Below are positions 598 to 51,851 of a stretch of DNA of 64,000 nucleotides, piece after piece. Position 1 is the first letter of the stretch. Each line of letters starts with the position of its first letter. A model generated the notes under the pieces. It saw only the letters and a list, made by a program, of their open reading frames with translations. It ran no database searches and was not told the DNA's origin. The stretch comes from Dehalogenimonas sp. WBC-2 (GTDB taxonomy: Bacteria; Chloroflexota; Dehalococcoidia; Dehalococcoidales; Dehalococcoidaceae): positions 1,111,902-1,175,901 of the forward strand of contig CP011392.1 of NCBI GenBank assembly GCA_001005265.1, read 5' to 3'. Both the position numbers and the translations under genes were made by a program.

Positions 598-3147
598 ATG
601 AGTGACAGCAGCCTCACACCGCTACGCGCCCAATATCTGAACGTCAAGAAACTCTACCCCGACGCCATTGTCTTCTTCCGCCTGGGCGATTTCTATGAGA
701 CTTTCGACACCGACGCGGAATTAACTGCCCGTGAGTTAGAAATCGTACTGACCGGCCGGGAGATGGGCAAAGGTGTGAAAGTGCCCATGGCCGGTATCCC
801 CTATCACGCCGTGGACAACTATCTAGCGCGGCTTATCAACCGCGGTTATAAAGTCGCCATTTGTGAACAAACCAGCCGCACGGGTGATGCCAAAGGCTTG
901 ATGGAAAGAGAAGTAGTCAGACTGGTCACACCGGGCACCGTGATCGAGCCGGGGTTGCTTGACGGCAAACGGAATAACTACCTGGTGGCCTTGGCGCCGG
1001 GGGTCGACGATGTTGGCATTGCATTCATTGACATTACCACCGGTGAATTTGCTGCGGCGCAAATCACTGCCGCACGGCTTGAGGCAGAACTCCACCGCCT
1101 GCACCCCGCTGAGGTCATCCTGCCGGAAAATTCCGGTTATTATCCTAAATTCAAAGCGCCGGTCACCCGGTTGGATAGCCGTGATTTTGATTTGGACTTC
1201 GCCACCGACATACTCAAGGAAACCTTCGGCGTAAGCACACTGGAGGGTTACGGTGTGGCCAACTTAGCGCTGGCTACCGCCGCAGCAGGCGCTATCATCG
1301 CCTATCTCAAAGAGACACACAAAGAGGTTATCAACAACATCAGTCACTTGAGCGCCTATTCGGTTAGCGATTACATGGCGCTGGAAGAAAGCACCGTCAC
1401 CAACCTGGAAGTATTCCAAAACGCCACCACCCGCGCCGTCACCGGTTCATTGCTCGGCATACTTGATGTAACTCGCACACCCATGGGCGCCAGGCTGTTA
1501 CGACGGTGGCTGGGGCAACCACTTTTAAACTTGGAAGCCATAACCGAGCGGCAGAACGCCGTGGAATGGTTATTCCAGAACCACCAGGTACGCTCAGAGA
1601 TAGAGCGATGGCTCAAATCTTTCCCGGATCTGGAACGGTTGGCCAACCGCGTCCGCAGCTTCACTGCCCTGCCGCGGGAAATAATCGCTCTCAAACGTTC
1701 GCTGGAGGCGGTACCGGAGCTGAAACGGGCGCTAAACAACGCAGCGGTAATCAAACTCAAAAACGATCTAAAAGAACAACCGAACATCATCGCTCTTATT
1801 GAGAGCGCCATTGAGTATGAACCATCCGGCCTGGTCGGTGAAGGCGGTGTCATTCGCGCCGGATTTTCTGCCCAACTGGATGAACTCCGCAGCCTGGCCT
1901 CCGGGGCCAAAAGCCATATCGCCAGGCTTGAATCACAGGAGCGGGCCAGCACCGGCATCAAGAACCTCAAGGTAGGTTACAATCAGGTTTTCGGTTACTA
2001 TCTGGAAGTATCTGCCGCCAATCTGACCCAAACGCCGGAGCGTTTCATCCGCAAACAGACCCTGGCCAACGCTGAACGCTACATTACACCGGAGCTTAAA
2101 GAGTATGAAGCCCAGATACTCACGTCCCGTGAGCGCCTGTCGGAAATGGAAACGGCGCTCTACCGCAGGGTGTTGGGTCAGGTCGGTGAATCCGCCGATG
2201 CCCTGCTGCTGCTGGCTGACGCGGTAGCGCGCCTGGACACGCTCAACTCCTTTGCTTCAGTCGCCAATGCTAATCGTTATGTCAAGCCGTCTATCAATGA
2301 TGGTATCGGCACACATATAATTCAAGGGCGGCATCCGGTCGTTGAAGCTAATTTACCATTAGGACAGTTCATCGCCAATGATACTATCCTCTCCCCTTCT
2401 GCAGGTCAGTTAATCATCCTCACCGGCCCAAATATGGCTGGGAAATCAACCTATTTAAAGCAGACAGCCATCATCACCCTCATGGCTCAGACCGGCTCCT
2501 TTGTGCCGGCCGCCAGCGCTGAGATCGGCCTGTGTGACCGCATCTTCACCCGCATCGGCGCCCATGAAGACCTGGCAGCCGGGAAATCCACTTTTATGGT
2601 TGAGATGGTAGAAACGGCCAACATCCTGACCAACGCCACTTCCAAAAGCCTGCTGATCCTTGATGAGATAGGCCGCGGCACCTCCACTTATGACGGTCTG
2701 GCCATCGCCCGAGCCGTGGTGGAGTACATCCATGACCATCTGAACGCCAGAACATTATTCGCCACCCATTATCATGAACTGGTAAACATGGCTGACAGCC
2801 TGTCCGGGGTGCGTAACTGCAATGTGGCGGTGTCGGAGGACAAAGGCGAGGTGGTATTCCTGCATAAAATCGTGCCCGGCGGCGTAGACAAGAGCTACGG
2901 CATCCACGTAGCTAAACTGGCCGGGCTGCCCAAACCGGTCATCAAACGGGCCAGCGAGGTGCTTTTAGAACTTGAATCGGTCAAAGATAAAACAGCGGCC
3001 AAAAAACCCGCCCCGACACCGCAACTGTCCCTATTCCAGCCTCCGCCGCCTCAGGTGGTCAGCGAGTTATTGAAACTAGATATAGATTCGCTTACCCCAC
3101 GGCAGGCGCTGGAGATGTTATACCAGCTAAAGGGGCAGATACAGTAA
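598..3147 (+). CDS. mutS: DNA mismatch repair protein MutS
   Basis: 849 aa. N-terminal mismatch-binding GDFYETF, Walker A GPNMAGKSTYLKQ, Walker B/DEIGRGTSTYDG, and a C-terminal QLSLF beta-clamp-binding-like motif. Confidence 0.97.
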   Translation: MSDSSLTPLRAQYLNVKKLYPDAIVFFRLGDFYETFDTDAELTARELEIVLTGREMGKGVKVPMAGIPYHAVDNYLARLINRGYKVAICEQTSRTGDAKGLMEREVVRLVTPGTVIEPGLLDGKRNNYLVALAPGVDDVGIAFIDITTGEFAAAQITAARLEAELHRLHPAEVILPENSGYYPKFKAPVTRLDSRDFDLDFATDILKETFGVSTLEGYGVANLALATAAAGAIIAYLKETHKEVINNISHLSAYSVSDYMALEESTVTNLEVFQNATTRAVTGSLLGILDVTRTPMGARLLRRWLGQPLLNLEAITERQNAVEWLFQNHQVRSEIERWLKSFPDLERLANRVRSFTALPREIIALKRSLEAVPELKRALNNAAVIKLKNDLKEQPNIIALIESAIEYEPSGLVGEGGVIRAGFSAQLDELRSLASGAKSHIARLESQERASTGIKNLKVGYNQVFGYYLEVSAANLTQTPERFIRKQTLANAERYITPELKEYEAQILTSRERLSEMETALYRRVLGQVGESADALLLLADAVARLDTLNSFASVANANRYVKPSINDGIGTHIIQGRHPVVEANLPLGQFIANDTILSPSAGQLIILTGPNMAGKSTYLKQTAIITLMAQTGSFVPAASAEIGLCDRIFTRIGAHEDLAAGKSTFMVEMVETANILTNATSKSLLILDEIGRGTSTYDGLAIARAVVEYIHDHLNARTLFATHYHELVNMADSLSGVRNCNVAVSEDKGEVVFLHKIVPGGVDKSYGIHVAKLAGLPKPVIKRASEVLLELESVKDKTAAKKPAPTPQLSLFQPPPPQVVSELLKLDIDSLTPRQALEMLYQLKGQIQ

Positions 3148-3262
3148 GGGGCTTTTCGACCCCTAAATAGCCGTTCGTTCCAGGCATGCGGAGTGGCAAT
3201 GCTTCAAGTCTCTCCATTGTCATCCTACGCAAAAGCGAAGGATCCACGTTCCCACGTATCCA

Positions 3263-3550
3263 CCCCCCGTCATTGCGAGGCGACGCCGCCTGTCCAGCCT
3301 GCCCCGAGTTAGCACTCGGGGAGCGAAGCGTGGGGAAGCAATCCCGGTCCTCTATTAGACATTTGAATTGGTATTATTTGAATATTGGCATTCTCTTAAC
3401 AATGCGTTCGCCCTGTTTATCCCGAGTTTGCACTCGGGGAGCCTGTCGAATAATCCGTTAACAATACGTTCGCTCTGAGCTTGTCGAAGAGTCATCCGCT
3501 TTAATGGTGCCCCCCGTCATTGCGGGGTTACTACCGAAGCAATCTCGGTA
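3263..3550. repeat. Cluster of REP-like intergenic repeat units (gtcattgcg...gaagcaatc units and CCCGAGT-loop-ACTCGGG hairpins)
   Basis: Units at 3263-3347, 3401-3500 and 3509-3550. Hairpins CCCCGAGTtagcACTCGGGG (3302-3321) and CCCGAGTttgcACTCGGG (3421-3438). Related copies at 29465-29607, 29782-29846, 46500-46634 and 50089-50143. Confidence 0.8.
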
Positions 3551-3554
3551 TAAA

Positions 3555-3740
3555 TTACGCTACGTTACTCCGGTTCTCCATATCTTTCACCTTTTGTTTG
3601 AGACCATCTAATTCGTCTTTCATTCCCTTTTCTCGCCTTTTCTGATAAGCCCGTATCAGAAAAAAGACCAGTACCACCGGAAAGATGAACAGCAGGACAT
3701 TTAAAACTATGATAAAAAATTCCAAAGGGCCGAAATGCAT
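3555..3740 (-). CDS. Small membrane-anchored protein with charged coiled C-terminus (unknown function)
   Basis: 61 aa. One hydrophobic helix (FFIIVLNVLLFIFPVVLVFFLI) followed by a KRREKGMKDELDGLKQKVKDMEN tail. Promoter cassette P1 lies directly upstream. Confidence 0.55.
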   Translation of the reverse strand: MHFGPLEFFIIVLNVLLFIFPVVLVFFLIRAYQKRREKGMKDELDGLKQKVKDMENRSNVA

Positions 3741-3775
3741 ATCTGTACTCCCTTCAACCGGTATCCAGTACCAGG

Positions 3776-3810
3776 ATTATATCCCCCCCAACATGAAGAA
3801 AAAGTGAATT
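3776..3810 (-). promoter_or_regulatory. Promoter cassette P1: direct repeats TTCAC-N6-TTCAT, then GTTGGGGGGGA, then TATAAT (read on the minus strand)
   Basis: Plus-strand gtgaa at 3804-3808 and atgaa at 3793-3797 (11-bp period). The -10 is attata at 3776-3781. Homologous to P2, P3 and P4. Confidence 0.6.
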
Positions 3811-3972
3811 GAGGTAAAACCTTAAAACCCATTGCTTGAGCACCGCAGCTTTCTCCCCTCCCCCTCCATCCACCCCGCGCGGACTATCACCACCGCCGCT
3901 ATCAGCAGGACAATTCCGACGTATTTCCTGATTAAAGCGCTTTTCATCTCACCCATGATCTGTGGTGTCCAT

Positions 3973-5070
3973 TCATGGTACCGGTATTCCTGCATAGACC
4001 GTGCCGTCAGCGGTTATGGTATAGGCAAATTTGGTATCCCGCACCAGGTACATTCCAGGGTCGTTAACGCCTCCCGTCTTCCCTCCCACTGGTATAATCT
4101 CGTTGTCATAAGCCACCACCGTGCCGTTGCCTTCAATCAGCGCCACCGTCACCGCCACTTTCACGTTATGCAATTCTGCCTGAAGTTCATCCATGTTAGG
4201 TTCCGTCGGCGGTGGTGGATTAGCCGGATCGGGGATACTGTCCGTAACGTCAATTGCCGCCAGCGCCTCGTCTGGCAGGGTGATACTTACCGGCTGGTTA
4301 ATACTGGTGTAGGTGATTGAAGTGACCTGTGTCTGACTCATGTCCCCGCTGACAAAAACGAGTGATGTATCCATCCTGGCTGGAAGATAATTTTCAGTGT
4401 TCACCCAGATGGTGACCTGTACCTGTTCCGGCTTGGGCTGGTTCGGGTCTGCCATCATGTCGGCTACTTCCTCAGCGGAACCGCCCAGGTATTCCAGTAT
4501 TTTTTCTGTGCTTGGCGTCACCTTGATTTTATAGGCCTGATTGCCGTTGACCGTTTCGGTACCCTGCAGTTCTACCGCCGCCCCTTCCGTCAGTACCGGA
4601 ATTTGGCCGGAAGTGTTATAAGAGTACCAGACCTGATCCCTCTGTTCGGCGGACAGAACCAATTTTTCCCAGACTCCGGATTCATTTCCCAGGTCGGACC
4701 GGTCTACCTTGGTGTATATAATGCCGTCAATCATAAATGTGCGTCCCTGCAAATTGCCGTGGCTGGTTTCACTTGTTATGTCCATGAACAGCTTTTTACC
4801 GGGGGCATCTATAGTCATGGCGTAGGTTGTGACCATATGTTGACCGTCCATACCGCCGCCGGACAGGGTCGCTGTCATGTCATAAGTAACCTCATAAGTC
4901 TTTATTCCGGCGGCTGCGGTTACAAGTGATGCCATAATCTCATCAACGGAGATATTGTTAGACACGTCAGTGGGTGATGGGTCAGCTTCTACCTCAGCGC
5001 AGCCGCTTAGCAGCCCGGCCGTCACAATCAGAGCCGGTACTGTTCCGGCCATTACCTTATTCCATTTCAT
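3973..5070 (-). CDS. Lipoprotein, possibly LolA-like fold, with Pro-rich linker and C-terminal beta domain (function unknown)
   Basis: 365 aa. Signal peptide plus lipobox LLSGC. PANPPPPTEP linker. Promoter cassette P2 lies upstream. The fold assignment is a guess from the sequence pattern only. Confidence 0.6.
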   Translation of the reverse strand: MKWNKVMAGTVPALIVTAGLLSGCAEVEADPSPTDVSNNISVDEIMASLVTAAAGIKTYEVTYDMTATLSGGGMDGQHMVTTYAMTIDAPGKKLFMDITSETSHGNLQGRTFMIDGIIYTKVDRSDLGNESGVWEKLVLSAEQRDQVWYSYNTSGQIPVLTEGAAVELQGTETVNGNQAYKIKVTPSTEKILEYLGGSAEEVADMMADPNQPKPEQVQVTIWVNTENYLPARMDTSLVFVSGDMSQTQVTSITYTSINQPVSITLPDEALAAIDVTDSIPDPANPPPPTEPNMDELQAELHNVKVAVTVALIEGNGTVVAYDNEIIPVGGKTGGVNDPGMYLVRDTKFAYTITADGTVYAGIPVP

Positions 5071-5107
5071 AGCCTGCCTCCACCTTTGGGATTCACTATT
5101 TTCCTGA

Positions 5108-5150
5108 ATTATACCACCCCAACATGAACGGGAGATGAAGAAAGAGTGAA
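5108..5150 (-). promoter_or_regulatory. Promoter cassette P2: three direct repeats (TTCAC, TTCAT, TTCAT at 11-bp period) followed by TGGTATAAT
   Basis: Plus-strand gtgaa at 5146-5150, atgaa at 5135-5139 and atgaa at 5124-5128. The -10 is attata at 5108-5113 with an extended TG. Confidence 0.6.
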
Positions 5151-5359
5151 TTTGGATAAATTTTTAAAACCCCTTGTTGGAGCACCGCAGTTCCTACATT
5201 CACTCAAGTGCCGAACCGCCACGACCAAAGAAACAATTATAATGTAACCAGCAAAATAACTATGCTGTATAGATACAGCATTCAGACTCTCCTATGGGTA
5301 ATCGTTCCCATGGCGCTTTCTCACCTTTTCCCGTGATCTTGAACGGTATACCTACCTGC

Positions 5360-5587
5360 TTATCGGCTATTCGATAACCGCTTTATCCCCGCGTAAATTA
5401 AAAGAATGACGCCGATAAGCACAAATGTAAAATTGGTACTAACAAGAACGTTTAACGACGTTGATAAAACTTCAATCACAAGGGGCGTGGTGATCAAGGT
5501 TACGGCAATGACAATTATTTGTTCTAGGTTTGTATTAAATCCTGCGTATTTGATACTATCGCTCTTCTGACTAGTGTCTTTTCCCAT
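5360..5587 (-). CDS. Small membrane protein (2 predicted TM helices), unknown function
   Basis: 75 aa with two hydrophobic stretches. Lies in an AT-rich patch. Confidence 0.4.
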   Translation of the reverse strand: MGKDTSQKSDSIKYAGFNTNLEQIIVIAVTLITTPLVIEVLSTSLNVLVSTNFTFVLIGVILLIYAGIKRLSNSR

Positions 5588-5660
5588 GATAATCTCTCTT
5601 CCTATTTTGTTTTCGCTAGTTTTGCGGTGTTAATAATAAACTATGATCTGACTTAAATGA

Positions 5661-5698
5661 AGACTGAGGGAGCGGTAAACATACCGCTCCCTCAGTCT
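5661..5698 (-). terminator. Stem-loop downstream of the 5704..6507 gene
   Basis: Perfect 16-bp stem AGACTGAGGGAGCGGT / ACCGCTCCCTCAGTCT with a 6-nt loop, 5 nt after the stop codon. The U-tract is weak. Confidence 0.5.
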
Positions 5699-5703
5699 GG
5701 GGG

Positions 5704-6507
5704 TTACTGCCAATCTATCTGGATACTCGTCCACATTGTATAGTCTGGAGACCAAGAATGAACCGCCGATCCAGCAGCAAAAAGAGGAGATGATGCTTGA
5801 CCGTAAGTCTTGACTCTTACTTGGTAAGTTGACCCGGGAGTGAGATATGCTCCAATGGCTTCATAAAAATATCCGCCATAATCAGACCATTCCTGATTAG
5901 TGGTTATATTATACGGCGTGTTAGTGTTTAGATGATACCATTGGCCACCTGAATATTCGTACAAAGACACCGTCACTGTGTATGTGGCAGACGAATTGAC
6001 GCCACCAATTATATCAGCCCAAGTGAAGCCGTTATACCTTACGTATGCATATTGTGATCCACCTGATCCAGATACAGTGAAGGTCTCGCCGGTATATGCC
6101 CATGCGTATGCTTCACCTGAGGTGAAAAAACCACCTACCATATCGATTTTATTTCTGTTAAAATCAATATCAGCTTGATAGGCAAGATCAAACAAACCGA
6201 TTTTTTCGCCATAAGCATCACCAATGGTTGCTACATATATCGTACGATCAACTCCTTTCTCAATCGAGACTGAACGCGTCCCGGCACCAGAACTATCTTT
6301 CAATGTCGCAGCATAGCTGGCGTCACTTGCTTTTTTCCCCCAAGTCTCTGAGATTAGTAGGGCGATATCAGCATCAACAGTTTTTGCTTCTTTCTCAGAT
6401 ATTTTTGTAAAGAAAACAAGGATGCTATGGAGTGTATCTATGTCCATTGAGAGGATTTCGTCTTTGCTAAGTTGGTTGATCTTGGAGGTTAGGTTATATA
6501 TTACCAT
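5704..6507 (-). CDS. Hypothetical protein, Y/W/G/T-rich beta-type C-terminal half, no signal peptide
   Basis: 267-aa ORF in an AT-rich patch. It starts 6 nt after the stop of the 83-aa membrane ORF. I recognise no family. Confidence 0.55.
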   Translation of the reverse strand: MVIYNLTSKINQLSKDEILSMDIDTLHSILVFFTKISEKEAKTVDADIALLISETWGKKASDASYAATLKDSSGAGTRSVSIEKGVDRTIYVATIGDAYGEKIGLFDLAYQADIDFNRNKIDMVGGFFTSGEAYAWAYTGETFTVSGSGGSQYAYVRYNGFTWADIIGGVNSSATYTVTVSLYEYSGGQWYHLNTNTPYNITTNQEWSDYGGYFYEAIGAYLTPGSTYQVRVKTYGQASSPLFAAGSAVHSWSPDYTMWTSIQIDWQ

Positions 6508-6513
6508 TAGAAC

Positions 6514-6765
6514 CTATTTCTTATTCCCGCTTATCTTCATCTGTTTGCCGTTAAATACCCTCACCATAGAAAATATAAACATAGTGATTCCCAGCGGAAA
6601 TAAATATGAGCCGAAACTTAGCGGTCCCAGGAACGAGATGCCGGTTATGACCACTCCTATGATAGCAATGGTCAACCATGGTGCCTTGTTTCTGGTTTTG
6701 ATACTGGCAAGTACCCAAAACAAAAGGGCAATAAGTACGCCAGTTATAACTAAGTACAACAACAT
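6514..6765 (-). CDS. Small integral membrane protein (about 3 TM helices), unknown function
   Basis: 83 aa, strongly hydrophobic. Tightly linked to the 5704..6507 gene. Confidence 0.45.
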   Translation of the reverse strand: MLLYLVITGVLIALLFWVLASIKTRNKAPWLTIAIIGVVITGISFLGPLSFGSYLFPLGITMFIFSMVRVFNGKQMKISGNKK

Positions 6766-6938
6766 TTTATCTAACTCCTGTCTATCTTAAATATTTTTAT
6801 CTTAATGAATAGCACCAGTGATGGACTTGCTACTCACAAATGACTCAGTGAAATCCAGTTTCTAAAACTATTCTATGCATTTCTATTTAAGTATTTCATA
6901 TTTTGATTCATTCTAATACGGAAGATAGTAATATATCA

Positions 6939-6975
6939 GGATGGTGGAAGTAATAATCTTTCACTTCCACCATCC
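6939..6975 (-). terminator. Stem-loop downstream of the 6991..7821 gene
   Basis: 13-bp stem GGATGGTGGAAGT / ACTTCCACCATCC with an 11-nt loop, 15 nt after the stop codon. Confidence 0.5.
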
Positions 6976-6990
6976 CTCTGATTGAAAAAC

Positions 6991-7821
6991 TTACGCTAGT
7001 TCCCGATATCCATTAGCGTCTATCCATCCGCCTTGCACTAGTGTACCACTAAAATCGGACCAGTAATTCCAACCACCTGGCCAAGCGTTAACTTGTATTT
7101 TTTGCCAGTGGTTGTAATAGAGGTAACCACCTTCTCCAGGTGATGCAAAAGTAGCATCACAATTAATATGAACATCCCCATCAGAACCATTGGGATCCCA
7201 TCCACTGCCTAATGAGTACCTTTGCCACCAAGGAAAAACAGGATTAATCCATCCGTCATAAAACCAATCGCTTCCACCCCAGACATAACTGCCGTCATCA
7301 TAATAGTTCATTCCTGCTTTAACAGTAGTTATATCCCAAGAAACGACATCATTGTAGTCTTGTTCCGCATACATATGATAATGAATCGTGGAATCTAACA
7401 TACTATTCAAACGAGCAGCGTTTGCTAGATTAGGTTGTTCTAGTTTAGGTTCTTTGAGATCATAGGCTTTTGTTTGATCAGGGATTGGAGCATTGTCATA
7501 AGTGATTTGATCAACAATTAGTTCTCCATTGTCATTTACCTTTAATCTAACACTGGAGTGGCTAGCAGCGTCTGTTCCTGGAACAATGATACGAACATAT
7601 GGGAAATATACTCCTTCTTCACCTCCGTCCATCGTAACTATTTCTCCTGTTGCCACTACAGAACCGATGGTAACAGCTTTTTGCATACCGTCAACAATGA
7701 TGAAGATATGATTTGTATCCGGGGATTTTTCATCCGCCGCCGCCACACCGCCCCCACCCATCATCCCCACCAGGAGACTCAGTGACATGAAAACCATTAG
7801 AAACCGTTTCTTGAGCTTCAT
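6991..7821 (-). CDS. Secreted W/Y/G/D-rich protein of unknown function
   Basis: Start chosen at MKLKKRFLMVFMSLSLLVGMMGGGGVAAA (signal peptide), preceded by AAGGAAAG. The longer ORF to 7875 is rejected because the paralogous leader at 12755-12837 differs by indels that are not multiples of 3. Confidence 0.6.
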   Translation of the reverse strand: MKLKKRFLMVFMSLSLLVGMMGGGGVAAADEKSPDTNHIFIIVDGMQKAVTIGSVVATGEIVTMDGGEEGVYFPYVRIIVPGTDAASHSSVRLKVNDNGELIVDQITYDNAPIPDQTKAYDLKEPKLEQPNLANAARLNSMLDSTIHYHMYAEQDYNDVVSWDITTVKAGMNYYDDGSYVWGGSDWFYDGWINPVFPWWQRYSLGSGWDPNGSDGDVHINCDATFASPGEGGYLYYNHWQKIQVNAWPGGWNYWSDFSGTLVQGGWIDANGYRELA

Positions 7822-7938
7822 GGTATTGCTTTCCTTTCGTTTATTTAATGCCATTGGTTGCCAATTGAAACCCATTACACATTCATTGGAGTCCTCGCTT
7901 TTGCCTGTCGTGTATCGGTTATAGGCTGGTTATTCCCT

Positions 7939-8499
7939 CTATGCCCAAATTGACGACGCCCGGTCATTCCACCCCTGGAAGGTGAGCATAGTCCATGAGG
8001 AACCTGGCGGCATGTAGAAAGAGGAACCGCCGTAGTTTTCATAGTCATAAAGCGTGACGCCGCGGCTGTCACATATTTTGGCGGATGAAATGACGTTGTT
8101 AAACGTGCCCAGGTAATCCAATTCAGTACCGGGAGAAACGATCAGAGGCTCGCCTCCCACATAAAACACATCGACATAAAATTTGGAGGAGGTCAAACCG
8201 GTTGAGGTGATAACAACATTATCCAACGGGTCAAAGACGGGCCCGTACTCACTCTCCACAAAGGCTTCGAGCGCCTTCGCCGTGGTGAAGGCGTAGAGTG
8301 TCCCACTTTTATCCACGGTGAACCGTAGCCGCTGCCCGTCGAAAAGGTTGATCTCTTCAGACTCATACCTGACGCCGTCTATGATGACCGGGTGCATCGG
8401 TGCCACGTGTACAATAGCCGCCTTCAGCCTCGGCGGACATGGGGTACATGGCCTCAACCCCAGATGGTCTGAGGGGCTGTACTTTGGTATCATTGACAT
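7939..8499 (-). CDS. Beta/gamma-crystallin domain protein (probably missing its signal peptide because of a frameshift)
   Basis: The C-terminus has two Greek-key signatures: YVDVFYVGG...FNNVISS and YDYENYGG...WNDRASS (Y/FxxxxY/FxG ... N/D-x-x-SS). The 5' end overlaps the signal-peptide ORF 8363..8623 in another frame. Confidence 0.6.
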   Translation of the reverse strand: MSMIPKYSPSDHLGLRPCTPCPPRLKAAIVHVAPMHPVIIDGVRYESEEINLFDGQRLRFTVDKSGTLYAFTTAKALEAFVESEYGPVFDPLDNVVITSTGLTSSKFYVDVFYVGGEPLIVSPGTELDYLGTFNNVISSAKICDSRGVTLYDYENYGGSSFYMPPGSSWTMLTFQGWNDRASSIWA

Positions 8500-8623
8500 G
8501 TGAGTCCTTTTGGGTGTAATTTTCTGGCAAGGTAGCGGCAGAGGTGATACTGGATGCGGGAATTGCCAGTAAAATTGCGGCGCACAAACTCAAGAGCAGT
8601 TTCTTCATTTCTAATACCTCCAT
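8363..8623 (-). other. Signal-peptide-encoding 5' ORF fragment, likely the displaced N-terminus of the 7939..8499 gene
   Basis: MKKLLLSLCAAILLAIPASSITSAA is a clear Sec signal. The tail of this frame (AEAEGGYCTRGTDAPGHHRRRQV) looks non-native. Confidence 0.4.
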
Positions 8624-8647
8624 CGGTTATCTTTTATCACCGTGAAT

Positions 8648-8679
8648 AGCATAGCACCCCAAGATGACCGGGAGATGAC
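8648..8679 (-). promoter_or_regulatory. Promoter cassette P3: GGTCATCTCCCGGTCAT direct repeats followed by TGCTATGCT
   Basis: Plus-strand atgac at 8675-8679 and 8664-8668 (11-bp period). The -10 is agcata at 8648-8653. Lies in the 95-bp divergent region between the secreted-protein ORF and the response regulator gene. Confidence 0.6.
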
Positions 8680-8718
8680 CAACCCAAAGCTGGACTTAGG
8701 GTAAACTAAGGTACTGGT

Positions 8719-9393
8719 ATGAAAATTCTACTGGTCGAGGATGATCAAAAGCTCTGCCTGACTCTCCGGAAATCGTTGGGCGAAGCCGGGCACGTGGTTG
8801 ATTTTGCCCATGATGGCGAGACCGGACTCCTCTATGCCGCAACCTCGGAATATGATCTGCTCCTTTTGGACGTGATGCTGTCTGGTGAAAAAGACGGCAT
8901 TGATGTATGCCGGTCTTTAAGACAGCAAGGGTTCATCTTGCCTGTTATCATGCTGACCGGCAAAACCCACGTCAGAGACCGGGTGGACGGTCTGGACGCT
9001 GGGGCAGATGATTATGTCCTCAAACCATTTTCAATCACTGAACTGAAGGCGCGCATCAGGGCGCTGCAAAGAAAGCAGTTGCCGGGCACATCAACGCTCA
9101 TTGAAATTTCGGATGTCTCAATTGATACCGTCACTCACCTGGTCACAGCGGGCGGCAAGCCGGTAGACCTTCCGGCCATAGAATACCGGGCGCTGGAATA
9201 TTTCATTTCCAATCCGGCCAGGGTGCTCACCCGGACAATGCTGGAGGAGCATGTTTGGGGCGGAGAGACTGATAATAGGTCCAATACTGTGGAAGCGCTT
9301 ATAAAAAGGCTGCGCCAACACCTCGGCTGGGATGCCCTGACCGGCCCGCTTCAGACCGTACGTGGACAGGGTTACAGGCTAAAGCCGTCATGA
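8719..9393 (+). CDS. OmpR/PhoB-family response regulator
   Basis: 224 aa. Receiver domain (LVEDD, LLLDVMLSG, KPF) and winged-helix output ending VRGQGYRLK. Confidence 0.93.
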   Translation: MKILLVEDDQKLCLTLRKSLGEAGHVVDFAHDGETGLLYAATSEYDLLLLDVMLSGEKDGIDVCRSLRQQGFILPVIMLTGKTHVRDRVDGLDAGADDYVLKPFSITELKARIRALQRKQLPGTSTLIEISDVSIDTVTHLVTAGGKPVDLPAIEYRALEYFISNPARVLTRTMLEEHVWGGETDNRSNTVEALIKRLRQHLGWDALTGPLQTVRGQGYRLKPS

Positions 9394-10757
9394 GACTCTG
9401 GCTGAAAAGCGTCAAGTTCAAGCTGACGGTTTTATATTCATTAGTCCTCGTGGCTGTTCTGGTCGTTTTTGGCCTTATTTCCTGGGCGTTCTTATCCTTC
9501 GGTTTGTTCAATAACCTAGAGGACTCGTTGGCGGCAGATTTCTCCAGCGTTAAAGACAACATCCAAAGAAACACTGGTGACGACCTGCCTGAACTGCTTG
9601 CTGAACTGGAACATGGGCTTGCCGGTTCACTTTTTGTTTACGATATCGCATCGGCAACATTATTCGGAAACCATTTCGATACAGATGCTGTCCGAGCAGC
9701 CCTGATTGATTTTATACCTCTAGGCGAAACGGCTCAGATCAAAAAAAGTCCTGACGGTCAGTTTCGCATGTATATTGCGCGTTACGACCAGGAGGCGGCT
9801 CCAGACAGGCTCTTGATAATTACCCGTCATGCCGGTTACATCTACGACACGCTTGAGGATTACAAGAACGTTCTTTATACACTGATTCCTTTTGTCATCG
9901 TCATCGCCGGCGTCTCTGGTTACTTCCTTGCCAGCCGCTCTATGAAACAGGTGAAGGTGATCACCGCCACCGCCAACGGCATTGATCCCGCTGACCTCAA
10001 AGACCGCATCCCCGTCAGGGGCAATGATGAACTGGGGCAATTGTCGCGCACCCTCAACTCATCCTTTGACCGCATCCACGGCTTCATTGACCGGCAGCGG
10101 CAGTTCGCCGCAGACGCCACCCATGACCTGAAGGCGCCCCTGACCAATATCAAGACACAGACTGAGGTGGCGTTGGACCGGAACCGTCCGGGTGCAGAGT
10201 ATCGGGACACCCTGCGCTCCATCGCCGAGGACACGGAGCAGATGGAGTCCATCGTTGAAGACCTGCTGACCCTGGCCAGTCTGGATACTGCGCCGGATGC
10301 CCAACACAGCACTCGCTTTGATCTTTCCAATGTTGCTGAGGACGCCCTTGACGGCTGGGAAGTCCCCTGCGCCGCCAAGGGCTTGACCCTTGCCCGCCGC
10401 ATCCAACCGGATATTGAGATAACCGGGGAACCGCTGGACTTCCAGCGTGTCTTGGGTAATCTCCTGGAGAACGCCGTCAAGGCTACCAGCGCGGGTGGCG
10501 TCACCGTTACCATGAACGAGAGCGGCGGAATAATCACCCTGACCGTAACTGACACCGGTATCGGTATCGCCCCGGAACACCTGCAAAAGATATTCTGGCG
10601 TTTCTACCGGGTTGACCGTCATGCTAAGGGCAACGGTCTGGGTCTGCCCATCGTCCAAGGCATCGCGGAGATGTACGGCGGGCGGGTGGAGGTAGAGAGT
10701 GAGGTGGGGCGAGGCACGGTGTTTCGGGTGGTCATACCTGCTCAGGACAGAGCTTGA
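9390..10757 (+). CDS. Sensor histidine kinase (2 TM, extracytoplasmic loop, HAMP, HisKA, HATPase_c)
   Basis: ATGA start/stop overlap with the RR gene. H-box ATHDLKAPLT, N-box LLENAVKA, DTGIGI, GNGLGLPIV. Confidence 0.93.
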   Translation: MRLWLKSVKFKLTVLYSLVLVAVLVVFGLISWAFLSFGLFNNLEDSLAADFSSVKDNIQRNTGDDLPELLAELEHGLAGSLFVYDIASATLFGNHFDTDAVRAALIDFIPLGETAQIKKSPDGQFRMYIARYDQEAAPDRLLIITRHAGYIYDTLEDYKNVLYTLIPFVIVIAGVSGYFLASRSMKQVKVITATANGIDPADLKDRIPVRGNDELGQLSRTLNSSFDRIHGFIDRQRQFAADATHDLKAPLTNIKTQTEVALDRNRPGAEYRDTLRSIAEDTEQMESIVEDLLTLASLDTAPDAQHSTRFDLSNVAEDALDGWEVPCAAKGLTLARRIQPDIEITGEPLDFQRVLGNLLENAVKATSAGGVTVTMNESGGIITLTVTDTGIGIAPEHLQKIFWRFYRVDRHAKGNGLGLPIVQGIAEMYGGRVEVESEVGRGTVFRVVIPAQDRA

Positions 10758-11072
10758 GCCAGCCGCCAGATATTTTTCTTTCTCTCCTTTCTTCTTTCAG
10801 CCACATCTACACTGTGAATGTTTTATGGATTTCCAAAAGAACAGAATCACCACCAACAACAGTTATGGCAATAACCAAAACTGGCTCACTCATATTATTT
10901 CTGGGGTTGTTTTTAATTTAGACCTCCTAATCAGTCTCTTTTTCCACGATAACCTCTTTCGTAGTTCTTTAACTTGTTATTCGGCGATAATGATAAACCA
11001 TGATATATAACTAAAACTACAGAACTGGGACTGTTTATTTACCACTACCACTGCACAATAATTACTACCAAT

Positions 11073-11627
11073 CTATTTGGACGGAACAACCAGATCACCA
11101 ATCTTTACATCAAGTATTGGTGTGAAGGAAATATCCCCACTGGGTAGTGTATTAACAGAACTACCAGTATCGAAGATGACCACCAAAAATGGAATAATGG
11201 GTATTGAACCCCTTTTATTGCGGATTTCAAAATCAATATCTAATGTAATATTGTTGTTTGTAATACTAGCGGTGGTAATTTTGCCATCCTTGAAGGTGAC
11301 GCTAACGCTGTCTATAGCCAAACGAATTTGTGAATATTTGGCATTTCTCAAGTTATCCGTTGCTATAGAAAACTGAGAGTCTTTAATTTCCATGAGGTTG
11401 AAGGTGTTGCGAGTTTCATTAATTTCAATTACAGTCCATTTTTGCGCCGAAACTTCATAAACTTGAATACTTGATAATGTCACTGCCACAGCGTCTATAT
11501 CTTTATATAAAACATTTGAACTGACATAGATATCGATCTGTGACTTAGGAGAAATCAAACCACAACCTGAAAGAAGCATCAATGATAGTATTAGCAGTGT
11601 ATGAATTGAAGAAAGATACTTGGACAT
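11073..11627 (-). CDS. Lipoprotein, DUF4382-like
   Basis: 184 aa. Lipobox LLSGC. The pattern ...VTLSSIQVY...W..I......FNLMEI.......A...L....YSQIRL...SV.V matches my recollection of DUF4382. Confidence 0.6.
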   Translation of the reverse strand: MSKYLSSIHTLLILSLMLLSGCGLISPKSQIDIYVSSNVLYKDIDAVAVTLSSIQVYEVSAQKWTVIEINETRNTFNLMEIKDSQFSIATDNLRNAKYSQIRLAIDSVSVTFKDGKITTASITNNNITLDIDFEIRNKRGSIPIIPFLVVIFDTGSSVNTLPSGDISFTPILDVKIGDLVVPSK

Positions 11628-11654
11628 TTTGTTACCTCCTTAATTGGTGTGCGT

Positions 11655-11683
11655 GAATTGGGCGGGTTATCCCCGCCCAATTC
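11655..11683 (-). terminator. Stem-loop between the 11711..12754 and 11073..11627 genes
   Basis: 12-bp GC-rich stem GAATTGGGCGGG / CCCGCCCAATTC with a 5-nt loop. No clear U-tract on the minus strand. Confidence 0.4.
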
Positions 11684-11710
11684 AATTTATGCCGTAGACT
11701 TGATGGGTAT

Positions 11711-12754
11711 TCAGTTGTTCGTGTTCAATGTTACTGTGCTCCCCGACGTGGAAACGGACAAACCAGTGAGATTTGGGAAATTGTTACTGTTCACTGTTGT
11801 GCTGCAAGAGTAACTTACAGTTGAATCGTCATGTTTCAGTGCAATATTCGTAAAAACAGTGTCGCCTGGGACATCGCTATTATAGTAGATATTATACCCT
11901 TCGAGTGTCCAGTAATGGCGTAAACCAAATATACCATCATGTCCAAAACCTGTTTCGACGTAAAAACCCGATGTTTCACCGGTAGTGAGATTTTTGATCT
12001 GTACTCGCCATTCTTCCCACGGGACTATCTGATACATCCATCCTTCCATTTGGTCGTTAACACTGCAATCAATAGAAGAGGCTGCATAATCATTCCCAAA
12101 TGTTTGAGCAAACCACGCTCTTCCTGTCCATGCATGACTTCCTCCTTGATTCCATTCCAACACTGGTTGAATTATTTTATCTCCTGCCCATGGTTCAATG
12201 CCACTAAATAGAAAATCTATTGCAGAGGACGAAGGGTTCTGAGCAAATGATGGAACAATCCATTTACAATAGCTTTCATCTATGCGAAGGCCTGTGTCAT
12301 GCGCATCTTCTATCCACCCATTGCCCGCACTAGGTACTGTGAGACGGGAGACTTTACTTTTATCTCTAAAGGATTTAGGCTCGATAACCGTAAATAAAAC
12401 CTCTCCATTTTTAATGATAACGGTACTATTCCCCGTATCCCGAATGTGAACGTCGTTTGGCACGGAAAACACATGTGTCGCTATTTTTTCTCCCTGTGGA
12501 GTAATTATTGATGTTGCATTTGCATCATTCGTCTTGAAAAGGAGTTGGCCGTCGGACGAGAAAACATTGGTAATACCGGATTCAAGTTGTTCAACAATAG
12601 AGCCTTTAGGTATCTTCACCCCATCATTACCAGTGCTAAATCCATTGTTAACAACAACGTATTCAGTGGCCGCCGCCACACTGCCACCCCCCAGCATCCC
12701 CGCTAGGAGTGTCATTGTGCAGAAGACTGTCAAGAACCTTTTTTTGAATGACAT
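11711..12754 (-). CDS. Secreted protein, C-terminal half possibly a glutamic-peptidase (G1/eqolisin)-like beta-sandwich
   Basis: Start chosen at MSFKKRFLTVFCTMTLLAGMLGGGSVAAA, a signal peptide paralogous to that of the 6991..7821 gene. C-terminal motifs WIVPS, FSGIEPW, IIQPVLEW, KNLTTGETS, WTLEG and TVFTNIAL resemble the G1 family order. Confidence 0.6.
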   Translation of the reverse strand: MSFKKRFLTVFCTMTLLAGMLGGGSVAAATEYVVVNNGFSTGNDGVKIPKGSIVEQLESGITNVFSSDGQLLFKTNDANATSIITPQGEKIATHVFSVPNDVHIRDTGNSTVIIKNGEVLFTVIEPKSFRDKSKVSRLTVPSAGNGWIEDAHDTGLRIDESYCKWIVPSFAQNPSSSAIDFLFSGIEPWAGDKIIQPVLEWNQGGSHAWTGRAWFAQTFGNDYAASSIDCSVNDQMEGWMYQIVPWEEWRVQIKNLTTGETSGFYVETGFGHDGIFGLRHYWTLEGYNIYYNSDVPGDTVFTNIALKHDDSTVSYSCSTTVNSNNFPNLTGLSVSTSGSTVTLNTNN

Positions 12755-12892
12755 TTTAGCTTTCCCTTCGTTTATTTTAATACCGTTGGCTGCCAATTGA
12801 AGCATTTATACATTCATCGGAGTCCTCGCTTTCGCCATTCCCAGTTGACGTGATTTTGATTAACCAACATCATGGCTTTTAGGTCACGGAAG

Positions 12893-12924
12893 ATCATAGC
12901 ACTCCAACATGACCGGGAGATGAC
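12893..12924 (-). promoter_or_regulatory. Promoter cassette P4: GGTCATCTCCCGGTCAT direct repeats followed by TGCTATGAT
   Basis: Plus-strand atgac at 12920-12924 and 12909-12913. The -10 is atcata at 12893-12898. About 70 bp is nearly identical to P3. Confidence 0.6.
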
Positions 12925-12960
12925 CAGCCCAAAGCTGGATTTAGGGTAAACTAAGGTACT

Positions 12961-13413
12961 ATGGCCATTTTATACGCTGCCCTCGGTCCGCAGGGACGCG
13001 GCATGCCGTGTCCACCCGTAAACAGTGTTTTTCCACAGCAAATCGTAAGGTACCATCTCGTCCGCCCACCACATCATTCTCCGCGAAACCGGAGGGGAGT
13101 TGTAGTGTATTTCGTAGGGTCTCTCGTAGGGGCCGATCTGAGATCGGCCCTATCCCCAGCCCTGTCCGGCGCAAACCGAAGTGTTTTCTTCTTCTAATTC
13201 GTCATCTTGGAAGCTTGTCCCCCCTCTCCGTTGACGGAGAGGGGGCTAGGGGGTGAGGTTTCGCATCTGCCGGGTTAAACTTGAAGCCTGTCCCCATAGC
13301 GCGACATCGGTATGCTATTCCCCAAGTATGTCTGCCGGATTGATCTTCTTTACAATGTTATTGACCATGTATCCCCCCTCTCCGTTGACGGAGAGGGGGC
13401 TAGGGGGTGAGGT
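12961..13413. repeat. Intergenic mosaic of palindromic repeat units
   Basis: Hairpins GGACGCGGCA/TGCCGTGTCC (12994-13013) and TAGGGGCCGATCT/AGATCGGCCCTA (13127-13152). Two identical 42-nt units cccccctctccgttgacggagagggggctagggggtgaggt at 13218-13259 and 13372-13413. Confidence 0.85.
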
Positions 13414-13455
13414 AGACTCCCCAAAAATAAATGCCCAAAAAGTTCCAAAACCCCA

Positions 13456-13484
13456 TTGACAATCACAATCATGAATACTACTAT
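13456..13484 (+). promoter_or_regulatory. Promoter module copy A (TTGACA-17 nt-TACTAT)
   Basis: ccaaaaccccaTTGACAatcac is shared almost exactly with copy B (29689) and copy C (46243). GGAG at 13507-13510 precedes the TTG start at 13517. Confidence 0.6.
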
Positions 13485-13516
13485 ATATCTATTAATTATT
13501 AGAACAGGAGAACACA

Positions 13517-13948
13517 TTGAACCAACCAAACGAATCCCCGGTCAAACGCAAGCGCGGCGCTCAGCCGGGCAATAAGAACGCCAGAACCCACGGCTTTTAC
13601 TCAGCATACGCCCGCTGCTGCCGTGCGGCTAAAGAAGAAAAGATCCACCGGGCCGCCGATATTGCCCGTATGGATCGGGATATCGCCGCCGCCCGGGCTA
13701 AGCTGGCGGCGGTCGTCCGCCACACCCCGGATAATTACCGCGTTATCCTGCTGGCAGTAGGCTCGGTCGCCCGGCTCTACTCTGCCAGATACCACCGCGG
13801 CGAGGCTATAAAAACTGCCGTCCTGGACGCCCTCAGAGAGTCCAGGCTGCCGCCGCGTCTAACCAGTGCGGCCCTGGAGGCGGCGGTGGTGGCGGCCAAT
13901 CTTTCACCGGCGCCGTCATTAGATTCAAATATCCAATCCCACGATTAG
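13517..13948 (+). CDS. Hypothetical basic protein with N-terminal GNxNAxxHGFYS motif
   Basis: 143 aa, TTG start 6 nt after GGAG. KRKRGAQPGNKNARTHGFYSAY, then an Ala/Arg-rich helical region. No family confidently recognised. Confidence 0.55.
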   Translation: MNQPNESPVKRKRGAQPGNKNARTHGFYSAYARCCRAAKEEKIHRAADIARMDRDIAAARAKLAAVVRHTPDNYRVILLAVGSVARLYSARYHRGEAIKTAVLDALRESRLPPRLTSAALEAAVVAANLSPAPSLDSNIQSHD

Positions 13949-14031
13949 GCCAAAGCTGAATTACGGAATTGTTTTATCACATTTATTTTTTTAGAAAAAA
14001 ATCGTCATCCGCGCACCGCCGCTTATCGCTC

Positions 14032-15309
14032 CTATTCATACCTGAGCGCTTCCACCGGGTCCAGCATGGCGGCTTTATTGGCCGGATACAAACCGGCCAG
14101 CAGGCTCACCACCGTGGTCAAGGCTATCACTCCCGGAATCAGCCAGGCTGAAAAAGCCGTCAGTTCAAAGCCGGGATAGTCCGAAAGGAAGGTCCGTGCG
14201 CCGATATAATTGATCGCCTGGCCCAAAAGCAGCGCCAGTCCGCCGCCGATAGCTCCACCGAAAAATCCCAGCGCCGCCCCTTCCATTGTGAAAAGAGAGC
14301 GGATATTGCCCCGGGTAGCCCCGACGGCCTTCATGACGCCAATCTCACGGGTGCGTTCATGAATCGCCATCAACAGCGTGTTGATGATGCCGATAGCCGC
14401 CACGATAAGAGCGATAATGCCAAAGGCAGAAAGGCCTATCTGGATAACACTGAAGACACTGTTGATCTGCGCCAGTATGTCATCCGGGGTGGTGGCGCTG
14501 AATCCCAGGTCGCGCACCGCTTGAGCGACAGCCGCCGTCTGCGACGGGTCTGTCGTCTTTATCTGAAGGACATAACCCGGCTGTGACTCAGAATAGCGTA
14601 ACGGATTGTCCTGATAGTAGCGCGCCATCTCTATTGCGTCCGCCTGCGGTATCAACAATTCAGCGCTGGAAACCTGTTTATCAATTATGCCAACGATGGT
14701 AAAAGTGTAATCCTGGGAGGCGAAATTATAAGCGATCTGTTTGCCAACATTGACCGTGACCTGCCGGCCTATAACCGACTCATCGTCGGGCCAGCCGAAA
14801 GCATCCAGATAATTATAAGCGATAAGGGCTACCCCTCTGTCGGAGTCACTAAAGCTGGAGCCCTGAAACAACGGACGAATATCAGCTTCATAAGCAGCCA
14901 CCCCGGAAACATTAACCGTGTAAATTTTTTCGGAATCATCCGGTTTAACGTAACGGGCCGATACACTCACCAGGTAATCTACCCGTTCAACACCAGGTAT
15001 GGCTTTCAATTTATCGACATCTGCGGCGGTGAAAGGAGTGATGATTGTCGTTTCGGAGGTATTAATCTCCTGCGGCCCGCCACCGCCCATGAAGCTATCA
15101 GCATCAGGACTGGATGAGGCAATAACGGCGGTATCCGGAAAACTCAACCCAAACTGACCAACGACGAATGACTGAAGACCGGTACCAAGTGAAACTACCA
15201 GGGAAATCAGCGTGGCACCGATGACTACCGCCGCCACCGTCAGTGCCGTGCGAAGTTTTCGGCGCCACAGGTTGGAAAAGGCCATGCTGAATAGTTCATT
15301 AATTTTCAT
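14032..15309 (-). CDS. ABC transporter permease, FtsX/MacB-type
   Basis: Start at MKINELFSMAFSNLWRRKLRT (typical FtsX-family N-terminus). Large extracytoplasmic domain and a C-terminal 3-TM FtsX domain. 11-nt overlap with the ATPase gene. Confidence 0.88.
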   Translation of the reverse strand: MKINELFSMAFSNLWRRKLRTALTVAAVVIGATLISLVVSLGTGLQSFVVGQFGLSFPDTAVIASSSPDADSFMGGGGPQEINTSETTIITPFTAADVDKLKAIPGVERVDYLVSVSARYVKPDDSEKIYTVNVSGVAAYEADIRPLFQGSSFSDSDRGVALIAYNYLDAFGWPDDESVIGRQVTVNVGKQIAYNFASQDYTFTIVGIIDKQVSSAELLIPQADAIEMARYYQDNPLRYSESQPGYVLQIKTTDPSQTAAVAQAVRDLGFSATTPDDILAQINSVFSVIQIGLSAFGIIALIVAAIGIINTLLMAIHERTREIGVMKAVGATRGNIRSLFTMEGAALGFFGGAIGGGLALLLGQAINYIGARTFLSDYPGFELTAFSAWLIPGVIALTTVVSLLAGLYPANKAAMLDPVEALRYE

Positions 15310-15979: not shown

Positions 15980-15994
15980 TTCATTCCCAATCTA

Positions 15995-17790: not shown

Positions 17791-17819
17791 ACTATTTCCT
17801 CCGTCAATCGAAAAATGAG

Positions 17820-18320: not shown

Positions 18321-18481
18321 ATGCCTTCTGATGCAAACTTTTTGCAGTAAACTCATACGATATATCGTAACATGTCGTTTTAGATGCGTCAAATACGACA
18401 ACCGTAGCCCGAAATGTGAGAGGATGCACGGATGTTATCCGGCGCATAGATCATTCAGCTAAAGATGCTTACTGAGTGGAA

Positions 18482-51842: not shown

Positions 51843-51851
51843 GGAGAGAAA

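Follow-up and report, generated by a model that had tools for sequence, protein, structure and literature searches.

In Dehalogenimonas sp. WBC-2 (contig CP011392.1), a stretch of 64 kb, the window of this analysis, carries at about 3.5-13 kb a cluster of genes for small exported proteins, whose four minus-strand promoters, P1 to P4, share one layout: direct repeats of a short half-site at an 11-bp period, a conserved spacer and a -10 hexamer without a -35. On sequence grounds, P1-P4 can almost certainly be taken as class II activator boxes of OmpR/PhoB type, set on extended -10 promoters, and there is strong evidence, of the same comparative kind, that boxes of this sort serve an OmpR subfamily spanning phyla as operator and promoter. 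The cis-element is solid, the assignment of a regulator to it is plausible, and the overall design is that of standard bacterial regulation; the main interest lies in the cross-phylum definition of an operator and in the possible modular capture of exoprotein genes.

The box of about 28 nucleotides (nt), found beside related Desulfobulbales regulators, is likely to be what a broad and so far unstudied OmpR subfamily recognises. Dehalogenimonas and related bacteria serve in bioremediation, have tiny genomes and no genetic tools, and their regulation is scarcely characterised outside the dehalogenase genes. Here a concrete operator, a candidate regulator/kinase pair and a few targets (a Ca-type crystallin protein, one with a glutamic-peptidase fold, and three that are lipoproteins or membrane proteins) offer an entry to their envelope and exoprotein biology. 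No earlier account of the system came up in literature searches on the assembly accessions, Dehalogenimonas regulators and TTCAT repeats.

Layout, excess and conservation of the boxes

Direct reading of the minus strand from 3000 to 13500 recovers all four sites that a first-pass annotation of the window had described (Table 1). Their half-sites conform to KTCAY at an 11-bp period, and the proximal one stops 10 nt (11 nt at P1) before the -10 hexamer. A scan for sigma-70 consensus promoters finds no -35/-10 pair at P1, P2, P3 or P4, which together with the reading confirms the geometry annotated earlier and places the sites among Pho-box-type elements: direct repeats at a 10-11-bp period, the proximal one about 10 nt upstream of a -10 that lacks a -35. 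Absent from the annotation is the extended -10 (TGn), present at P2, P3 (as TGc) and P4. TGnTATAAT is frequent at other likely promoters of the window, and it is only this TGn extension that is widespread; the G-rich spacer nTTGGGGTGn, considered as a general promoter feature, was rejected as such because it is uncommon at this organism's promoters. The distance from the -10 to the start codon is 36-42 nt for the genes of the 61- and 365-amino-acid (aa) proteins and of the beta/gamma-crystallin protein; the P4 -10 sits 139 nt upstream of the 347-aa gene, with a conserved leader in between. P3 occupies a 110-nt divergent region that has the regulator gene on one side and the crystallin gene on the other.

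The pattern KTCAYN6KTCAT occurs six times in the 64 kb against 1.3 expected, a count that none of 100 shuffles attains, and five of the six matches fall in these promoters. P2, P3 and P4 have a common 31-nt core of 84-87% identity, without similarity in the flanks (duplication family D3). A weight-matrix scan was run with a matrix built from sites of other organisms only and with 30 shuffles of the window as background: it recovers P2 (48.1 bits), P4 (39.2 bits) and P3 (37.3 bits), the best shuffle scoring 19.3 bits and the rest of the window, beyond the sites, at most 13 bits; P1 is marginal. The idea of four copies of one cassette stands insofar as all four exist, and needs correction insofar as they form two duplicated pairs and not independent events. 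An 85-nt duplication of 86% identity (D1, 8631-8715 vs 12876-12960) contains P3 and P4; a 56-nt duplication of 82% identity (D4, 3793-3848 vs 5135-5190) contains P1 and P2 together with the 3' end of a small open reading frame (ORF; ..LRCS[SN][NK]GF*). With two pairs of segmental duplicates and a common core, the four sites amount to fewer than four independent observations.

Orthologues of the regulator and kinase encoded in the cluster (58-67% identity for the regulator) are found in strain W (locus L003), D. lykanthroporepellens BL-DC-9 (L004) and Dehalococcoidales metagenome bins (L007-L011). Every one of these loci has a divergent cluster of small exported proteins, and the gene divergent from the regulator is always of the ~220-aa crystallin type; in L003 and L004 the order is that of the window, namely regulator, divergent box, crystallin gene, leader, secreted protein, type A box (the P2 type) and lipoprotein. 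The divergent intergenic region always holds an 11-bp-period direct repeat 10 nt before TGcTAnnAT, with half-sites specific to the lineage: GGTCATctcccGGTCAT in the window, CTGTCATaattCTGTCAG in L003, a close variant with CTGACAG as the second half-site in L004, and CTGACAGggttCTGACAG in L007, L009 and L010. Type A boxes nearly identical to P2 lie at 7178 and 5167 in L003 and at 3849 in L004, and also in L014 and L035; TTCAG/TTCAA variants are found in L009 and L010. The half-sites change in pairs (GGTCAT/GGTCAT, TGTCAT/TGTCAG, TGACAG/TGACAG, TTCAG/TTCAG, TTAAG/TTAAT), the period and the 10-nt distance to the -10 remaining constant, and such joint change within a fixed geometry is the signature expected of a site read by a tandem dimer. 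The alternative that the distal half-site doubles as the -35 of the regulator's own promoter fits L003 (ATGACA), fails in L007, L009 and L010, and was dropped.

Two database-wide scans extend this pattern beyond the Dehalococcoidia. One, with a 20-base pattern, covered one genome per species, a set that holds neither WBC-2 nor BL-DC-9 (the RefSeq records of both are suppressed; PMC13390414); the other, with a 19-base pattern, covered metagenomes. The former gives four matches (two in Desulfobulbales, one in Dehalogenimonas TCA1, one in Cohnella) and the latter 29 metagenome loci. Both Desulfobulbales matches stand upstream of a regulator/kinase operon, at 41 and 134 nt, and the regulator is 46-47% identical to the window's. 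Over all 33 matches, a related OmpR-family regulator gene (39-48% identity) starts within 134 nt, directly downstream or divergent, at ten. A correctly spaced -10 accompanies 14 of the 33, and a regulator gene adjoins in eight of these; the other six are P2 of the window, L035 (a second contig from the WBC-2 culture), two matches at contig ends, and those in TCA1 and Cohnella. Matches without a -10 look like chance background. At divergent metagenome loci the box precedes a small secreted protein, a 505-aa protein, and an ATP-binding cassette (ABC) ATPase with its permease, judged from their sequences to be MacB-type. The Cohnella yongneupensis box (L013 5699-5726, GTTCATATCCCGTTCATATTGGCGTGTTATCGT) is near-perfect. 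No regulator gene lies within 8 kb of it, nor any ORF of at least 70 aa downstream; in inverted orientation it lies 124 nt upstream of an ABC-transporter operon.

Conservation in orthologous clusters, recurrence beside regulators in other phyla and paired half-site change all strengthen the annotation's proposal of an OmpR/PhoB-type, Pho-box-like class II element. As a separate observation, the 10-nt spacer nTTGGGGTGn is kept across phyla (P1-P4; L003, L004, L012-L015, L018, L030, L045, L047).

Candidate regulators and competing readings

The annotation's statement that one regulator/kinase pair supplies the sole regulators of the cluster, with P3 in their divergent region, agrees with what the cluster contains: one OmpR-family response regulator, with a receiver and a winged-helix domain, and one adjoining membrane kinase with HAMP, HisKA and HATPase_c domains, their genes overlapping by 4 nt. 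This composition is that of an OmpR/PhoB-family two-component system, in which neither the regulator nor the kinase reaches any NCBIfam equivalog or subfamily cut-off. The sensor loop of the kinase, in which neither an ExxE nor an RExxE motif nor any Pfam domain is found, gives no clue to the signal.

That the sites are bound and activated at all has two improbable competitors. Regulation might be absent, the four sites being duplicates of one ordinary promoter with an internal 11-nt tandem duplication and sharing nothing except ancestry. The segmental duplicates P3/P4 and P1/P2 do include non-promoter flanks (the regulator 5' untranslated region (UTR) and the small-ORF 3' end), and the whole locus is a patchwork of remnants; conservation of the box across phyla and beside regulator genes, joint change of half-sites at orthologous positions whose flanks diverge, and the lack of flanking similarity between P2 and the P3/P4 core make this reading very improbable. 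Repression is scarcely better placed. The boxes overlap the polymerase footprint, and extended -10 promoters, of which the window has many likely examples with TGnTATAAT, can act without a -35, so a regulator bound over the -35 region could block RNA polymerase at promoters that are otherwise constitutive; the geometry, however, is that of known activator sites such as the BqsR box and the PhoB box at phoA, with tandem repeats reaching to 10 nt before the -10 and no -35, and the weak hexamers of P3 (TATGCT) and P4 (TATGAT) are such that the need for an activator is expected. Repression is accordingly a small possibility.

On balance we favour control of all four sites by the local regulator. 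All four lie within 5 kb of its gene and none elsewhere in the 64 kb, P3 is in its divergent region, the order of the cluster is conserved in three species, and P3/P4 differ from P2 essentially by G vs T at the first base of the half-site. The annotated link between the boxes and this pair is one of proximity and synteny and is only partly supported: a paralogous system with similar boxes makes cross-regulation or split control conceivable. Several observations weigh against the simple picture of one local activator and four class II sites. The second OmpR-type system of WBC-2, P0236 (L045), has boxes at its own locus, TTCAGgttgtgTTCAGgttgccgTGgTAGAGT and TTCATctcctgTTTATcttgg; these comprise TTCAG-N6-TTCAG boxes and a single TTCATctcctgTTTAT box, and share the spacer and extended -10 described above. 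In TCA1 the sole box of strict type A lies 3.6 kb from a paralogue-type regulator and not from an orthologue of the local one. The recognition helix reads TVEALIKRLR in the local regulator and LIDVYIRRLR in the regulators beside type A boxes of other phyla, and the WBC-2 culture yields a fifth box of type A, on a contig without a regulator gene (L035). The conservation of the spacer exceeds what a simple class II model demands, the extended -10 accounting for its last 3 nt only. Finally, P1 alone is statistically indistinguishable from background: it scores 12.7 bits with the full matrix (shuffle maximum 19.3) and 18.3 bits with the repeats only (shuffle maximum 17.9). This weakest copy is what P2 becomes when one 11-nt unit is removed and the -10 is moved a base further off, and is credible mainly as such a derivative.

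Control might instead be split or shared, the local regulator reading the GTCAT boxes (P3, P4) and P0236 mainly the TTCAT boxes (P1, P2), or both acting on all. P0236 is 58% identical to the TCA1 regulator near the type A box, and the gene of that paralogue is preceded by an inverted TTCATtttccgTTCAT repeat, the type A box lying downstream; the P0236 locus itself carries both TTCAG and TTCAT boxes; the divergent promoters of the local regulator's orthologues carry GTCAT or GACAG in place of TTCAT; and HssRS and HitRS of Bacillus anthracis are a precedent for paralogous systems that share near-identical direct repeats (PMC3968170). We nonetheless consider this arrangement rather unlikely. Type A boxes lie inside the cluster of the local-type system, and not beside the paralogue, in WBC-2, strain W and BL-DC-9 alike; P3/P4 share 84-87% of the 31-nt core with P2, the half-sites differing in the single base named above; and the paralogue's own boxes in WBC-2 and strain W have TTCAG or TTAAG/TTAAT half-sites, the divergent box of the strain W paralogue locus being GTTAAG-N5-GTTAAT, of BqsR type.

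If the local pair does control the sites, the membrane kinase would sense an extracytoplasmic signal and phosphorylate the regulator, which would bind as a head-to-tail dimer to two KTCAT half-sites 11 bp apart, at about -38 to -34 and -27 to -23. Placed where a -35 usually lies, it would recruit RNA polymerase to the extended -10 (TGnTAnnnT), a class II activation as at Pho and BqsR boxes. The P3 unit would comprise the crystallin pseudogene, the leader and the 276-aa gene; the P4 unit the leader, the 347-aa gene and possibly the 184-aa gene; the P2 unit the 365-aa gene and possibly the 57-aa remnant; and the P1 unit the 61-aa gene, which would probably be switched more weakly. Hairpins seen on direct reading downstream of the 347-, 276- and 267-aa genes suggest the limits of transcription units.

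Genes behind the boxes and their proposed modular assembly

Every product of a box-driven gene has a signal peptide, a lipobox or a transmembrane (TM) segment, in keeping with the annotation, which had described all downstream genes as encoding exported or membrane proteins. Its further statement that their functions are all unknown goes a little too far, as folds are assignable for two targets, the crystallin and the G1-like protein. Of the lipoproteins, the 184-aa one is confirmed by Pfam as DUF4382; the 365-aa one scores 62 bits against the NCBIfam SCO4651 family (cut-off 65), and only its first ~40 residues are common to the lipoproteins behind the type A boxes of L003 and L004.

Table 1. 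Features of the promoter cluster; positions refer to the window unless a locus is named
Feature	Position	Strand	Remarks
P1	3776-3808	minus	TTCAC 3808-3804, N6, TTCAT 3797-3793, spacer GTTGGGGGGGA (11 nt, G-rich), TATAAT 3781-3776
P2 ("type A" box)	5108-5150	minus	TTCAC 5150-5146, TTCAT 5139-5135, TTCAT 5128-5124, N6 between repeats; spacer GTTGGGGTGG (10 nt), TATAAT 5113-5108, extended -10 TGgTATAAT
P3	8648-8680	minus	GGTCAT 8680-8675, N5, GGTCAT 8669-8664, spacer CTTGGGGTGC (10 nt), TATGCT 8653-8648
P4	12893-12925	minus	GGTCAT 12925-12920, N5, GGTCAT 12914-12909, spacer GTTGGAGTGC (10 nt), TATGAT 12898-12893
OmpR/PhoB-family response regulator, 224 aa	8719-9393	plus	Pfam PF00072 Response_reg 3.4e-25, PF00486 Trans_reg_C 1.3e-20, both past cut-offs
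Sensor histidine kinase, 455 aa	9390-10757	plus	two TM segments, ~125-aa periplasmic loop, HAMP, HisKA, HATPase_c
61-aa single-TM protein, behind P1	3555-3740	minus	
57-aa ORF	3822-3995	minus	truncated remnant; full lipoprotein gene is 202 aa in L035; 3' end ..LRCSSNGF* in the P1/P2 duplication
365-aa lipoprotein, behind P2	3973-5070	minus	lipobox LLSGC; DUF6612 / LppX-LprAFG-like; Pfam DUF6612 1.9e-8
276-aa secreted protein, second gene behind P3	6991-7821	minus	W/Y/G-rich; hairpin after stop codon
Leader upstream of 276-aa gene	7822-7938	minus	mini-ORF ATGAATGTGTAA (7886-7875); duplication families D6, D8
Beta/gamma-crystallin protein, ~222 aa, first gene behind P3	7939-8608	minus	secreted; domain C-terminal, single, Ca-type
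184-aa DUF4382 lipoprotein, second gene behind P4	11073-11627	minus	lipobox LLSGC; Pfam DUF4382 2.8e-10
347-aa secreted protein, first gene behind P4	11711-12754	minus	glutamic-peptidase (G1/eqolisin)-like C-terminal domain
Leader behind P4	12755-12892	minus	mini-ORF ATGAATGTATAA (12817-12806)
Regulator 5' UTR remnant	12926-12963		homology to 8681-8718, ending at ATG; came along with P4 duplication
Duplicated divergent promoters	window 12876-12963; L004 ~6028 and 6196-6318; L009/L010 7170-7256; L011 166-252		

The beta/gamma-crystallin assignment is borne out by a profile of five members of its family, which matches Protein S (1.5e-8) and 3hzb (1.3e-7) as well as a Ciona crystallin, clostrillin and spherulin 3a. 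The matches cover the last ~80 residues, where the conserved motifs NNVISS (NNxISS) and NDRASS fit N/D-N/D-x-x-S/T-S; in a single-sequence Pfam search the protein stays under the cut-offs. In this gene, the first behind P3, an inserted base near 8426 shifts the frame relative to the L003 and L004 orthologues. Two further assemblies of the same culture share the insertion, and the gene is probably a pseudogene in WBC-2, a shared sequencing error being less likely. An EF-hand protein gene adjoins the box-bearing regulator operon in Desulfocapsa and Desulfopila (L012 3141-3614; L015 2372-2833), and these neighbours, with the Ca-type crystallin partner in Dehalococcoidia, hint, speculatively, at a link to divalent cations.

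The second gene behind P3 encodes a 276-aa protein for which a Pfam search found no family. For the 347-aa protein behind P4, annotated as possibly G1-like, a structure model (mean predicted local distance difference test score, pLDDT, 66; 70-89 across most of the C-terminal domain) has as its best Foldseek match scytalidoglutamic peptidase (2ifw_A, E-value 3.1e-9, TM-score 0.61 on the target), and 1s2b and neprosin also match. As modelled, the protein has a G1-like beta-sandwich fold and belongs with the G1 peptidases by fold. The likeness is confined to this level: no Pfam family appears at an E-value of at most 0.1, a sequence profile search of the PDB gives nothing relevant, and sequence alone does not place the protein in G1. 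Its detectable relatives number only eight, some from the archaeon Methanoregula, and Gln196 and Glu285 are invariant across an eight-sequence alignment of the family and are candidates for a catalytic Gln/Glu dyad.

Between P4 and its first gene, as before the 276-aa gene, lies a leader with a mini-ORF, ATG AAT GTA/GTG/GGA TAA/TGA (MNV* or MNG*), that has its own Shine-Dalgarno sequence and keeps its stop despite a TAA-to-TGA change; the leader is conserved before five secreted-protein genes in the window, L003 and L004. We make no claim that it is a riboswitch or attenuator: the consensus fold is weak (-4.9 kcal/mol) with little covariation, and an Rfam scan of 3000-14000 at E-values of at most 1 returned no RNA family. 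The 83-, 267- and 75-aa genes (5360-6765), also tried as targets, are not counted, having no box and lying behind an AT-rich region with ordinary promoter-like sites.

Modules of promoter, leader and signal peptide recur in front of proteins that have nothing else in common. The type A box, its 5' UTR and a lipoprotein signal peptide (MKWNKVMAGTVPALIVTAGLLSGC) precede unrelated mature proteins, the 365-aa lipoprotein in the window vs a 150-168-aa family in L003 and L004. Remnants of this module persist in L004 and L035, where a type A box is followed by a 23-codon signal-peptide remnant (L035 2740-3483). The mini-ORF leader with the signal peptide MxxKKRFL...GGGxVAAA likewise stands before five proteins whose mature parts are mutually unrelated. 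G+C content is 36-45% in the cargo genes (347, 184, 276, 83, 267 and 75 aa; 5300-7700 and 10900-12900) vs 50-62% in the regulator and kinase genes, which suggests that the AT-rich cargo genes may have been acquired horizontally and put behind resident promoter/signal-peptide modules. In three lineages a copy of the regulator-divergent promoter has entered the target cluster, on each occasion with a regulator 5' or kinase 3' fragment. Together, these observations suggest growth of the putative regulon by module duplication and recombination.

A bolder interpretation, which we offer tentatively, is that the cluster is an expression platform and not a fixed regulon, in which modules repeatedly capture foreign exoprotein genes under one sensory system. 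The modules might, with similar reserve, be of two kinds: box, 5' UTR and lipoprotein signal peptide, or box (or operon), mini-ORF leader and signal peptide. If this holds, Dehalococcoidia would possess a fast-evolving, signal-controlled set of exported proteins.

The cluster is bounded by mutS (598-3147) and by ABC-transporter genes. A MacB-type ABC transporter and an operon of PadR and an ABC-2 transporter adjoin it (14032-18401, minus strand), none with a box, and a second, unrelated OmpR-type kinase/regulator pair is encoded at 50292-52532 on the plus strand. Hairpin-forming repeats resembling repetitive extragenic palindromes flank the cluster on both sides: a perfect 42-nt pair at 13218-13259/13372-13413 and a near-perfect 22-nt pair at 3303-3324/3421-3442.

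Relation to known two-component systems

In the E. coli phoA promoter, tandem repeats at an 11-bp period stand in for the -35, with 10 nt between the last of them and the -10. P1-P4 have the same geometry, CTGTCATaattCTGTCAG at the orthologous locus is nearly the Pho-box consensus, and PhoB is the top NCBIfam match of the regulator. The pair is nevertheless unlike PhoB-PhoR: the equivalog cut-off is missed, the kinase has no PAS domain, and the genes behind the boxes include none for phosphate uptake or phosphatases. Membership in the PhoB-PhoR phosphate regulon was rejected (TIGR02154, 194.2 vs a cut-off of 296.2; targets unrelated to phosphate). CusRS/CopRS provide the best NCBIfam match of the kinase (TIGR01386, 2e-65) and a strong match of the regulator (TIGR01387, 4.9e-55), with the same membrane topology; both scores, however, are under the family cut-offs (186.5 vs 279.2 for the regulator with TIGR01387, 221.6 vs 292.55 for the kinase with TIGR01386), no metal-efflux genes stand behind the boxes, and membership in CusRS/CopRS/CzcRS was likewise rejected. 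The CusR box is palindromic, not a direct repeat.

The direct repeat of HssR is GTTCATATT-N2-GTTCATATT. As in the HssR/hrtAB system, the Cohnella box GTTCATATCCCGTTCATATTGG adjoins an ABC-transporter operon, and other box loci precede pumps that appear to be MacB-type. TorR binds the tor boxes CTGTTCATAT and CCGTTCATCC (PMC9239176). The TorR and HssR systems share with the one described here the GTTCAT half-site, the tandem arrangement and the OmpR-family regulator. Unlike the sites of TorR and HssR, the boxes of the window stand before genes for exported proteins, not a trimethylamine N-oxide reductase or a haem pump, and the 25 top-scoring NCBIfam families listed for the regulator include neither TorR nor HssR.

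The boxes of BqsR, PhoB and TorR are the nearest known parallels. BqsR, of the Pseudomonas aeruginosa BqsRS/CarSR system, is an activator whose site, TTAAG(N)6TTAAG, overlaps the -35 (PMC4358008). Both cases have an OmpR-family regulator, a tandem 5-mer-N6-5-mer repeat at an 11-bp period in the -35 region, and targets that are for the most part small proteins, exported or periplasmic, whose function is poorly known; the paralogous system of Dehalogenimonas (L047) has a BqsR-like variant, TTAAG-N6-TTAAT. At P1-P4 the half-site is KTCAT instead of TTAAG, the kinase loop lacks ExxE, and the regulator is only distantly related (CarR receiver domain in the PDB, 4.9e-22). By analogy with these systems, the P1-P4 boxes would work by class II activation of the BqsR, PhoB, PmrA or TorR type.

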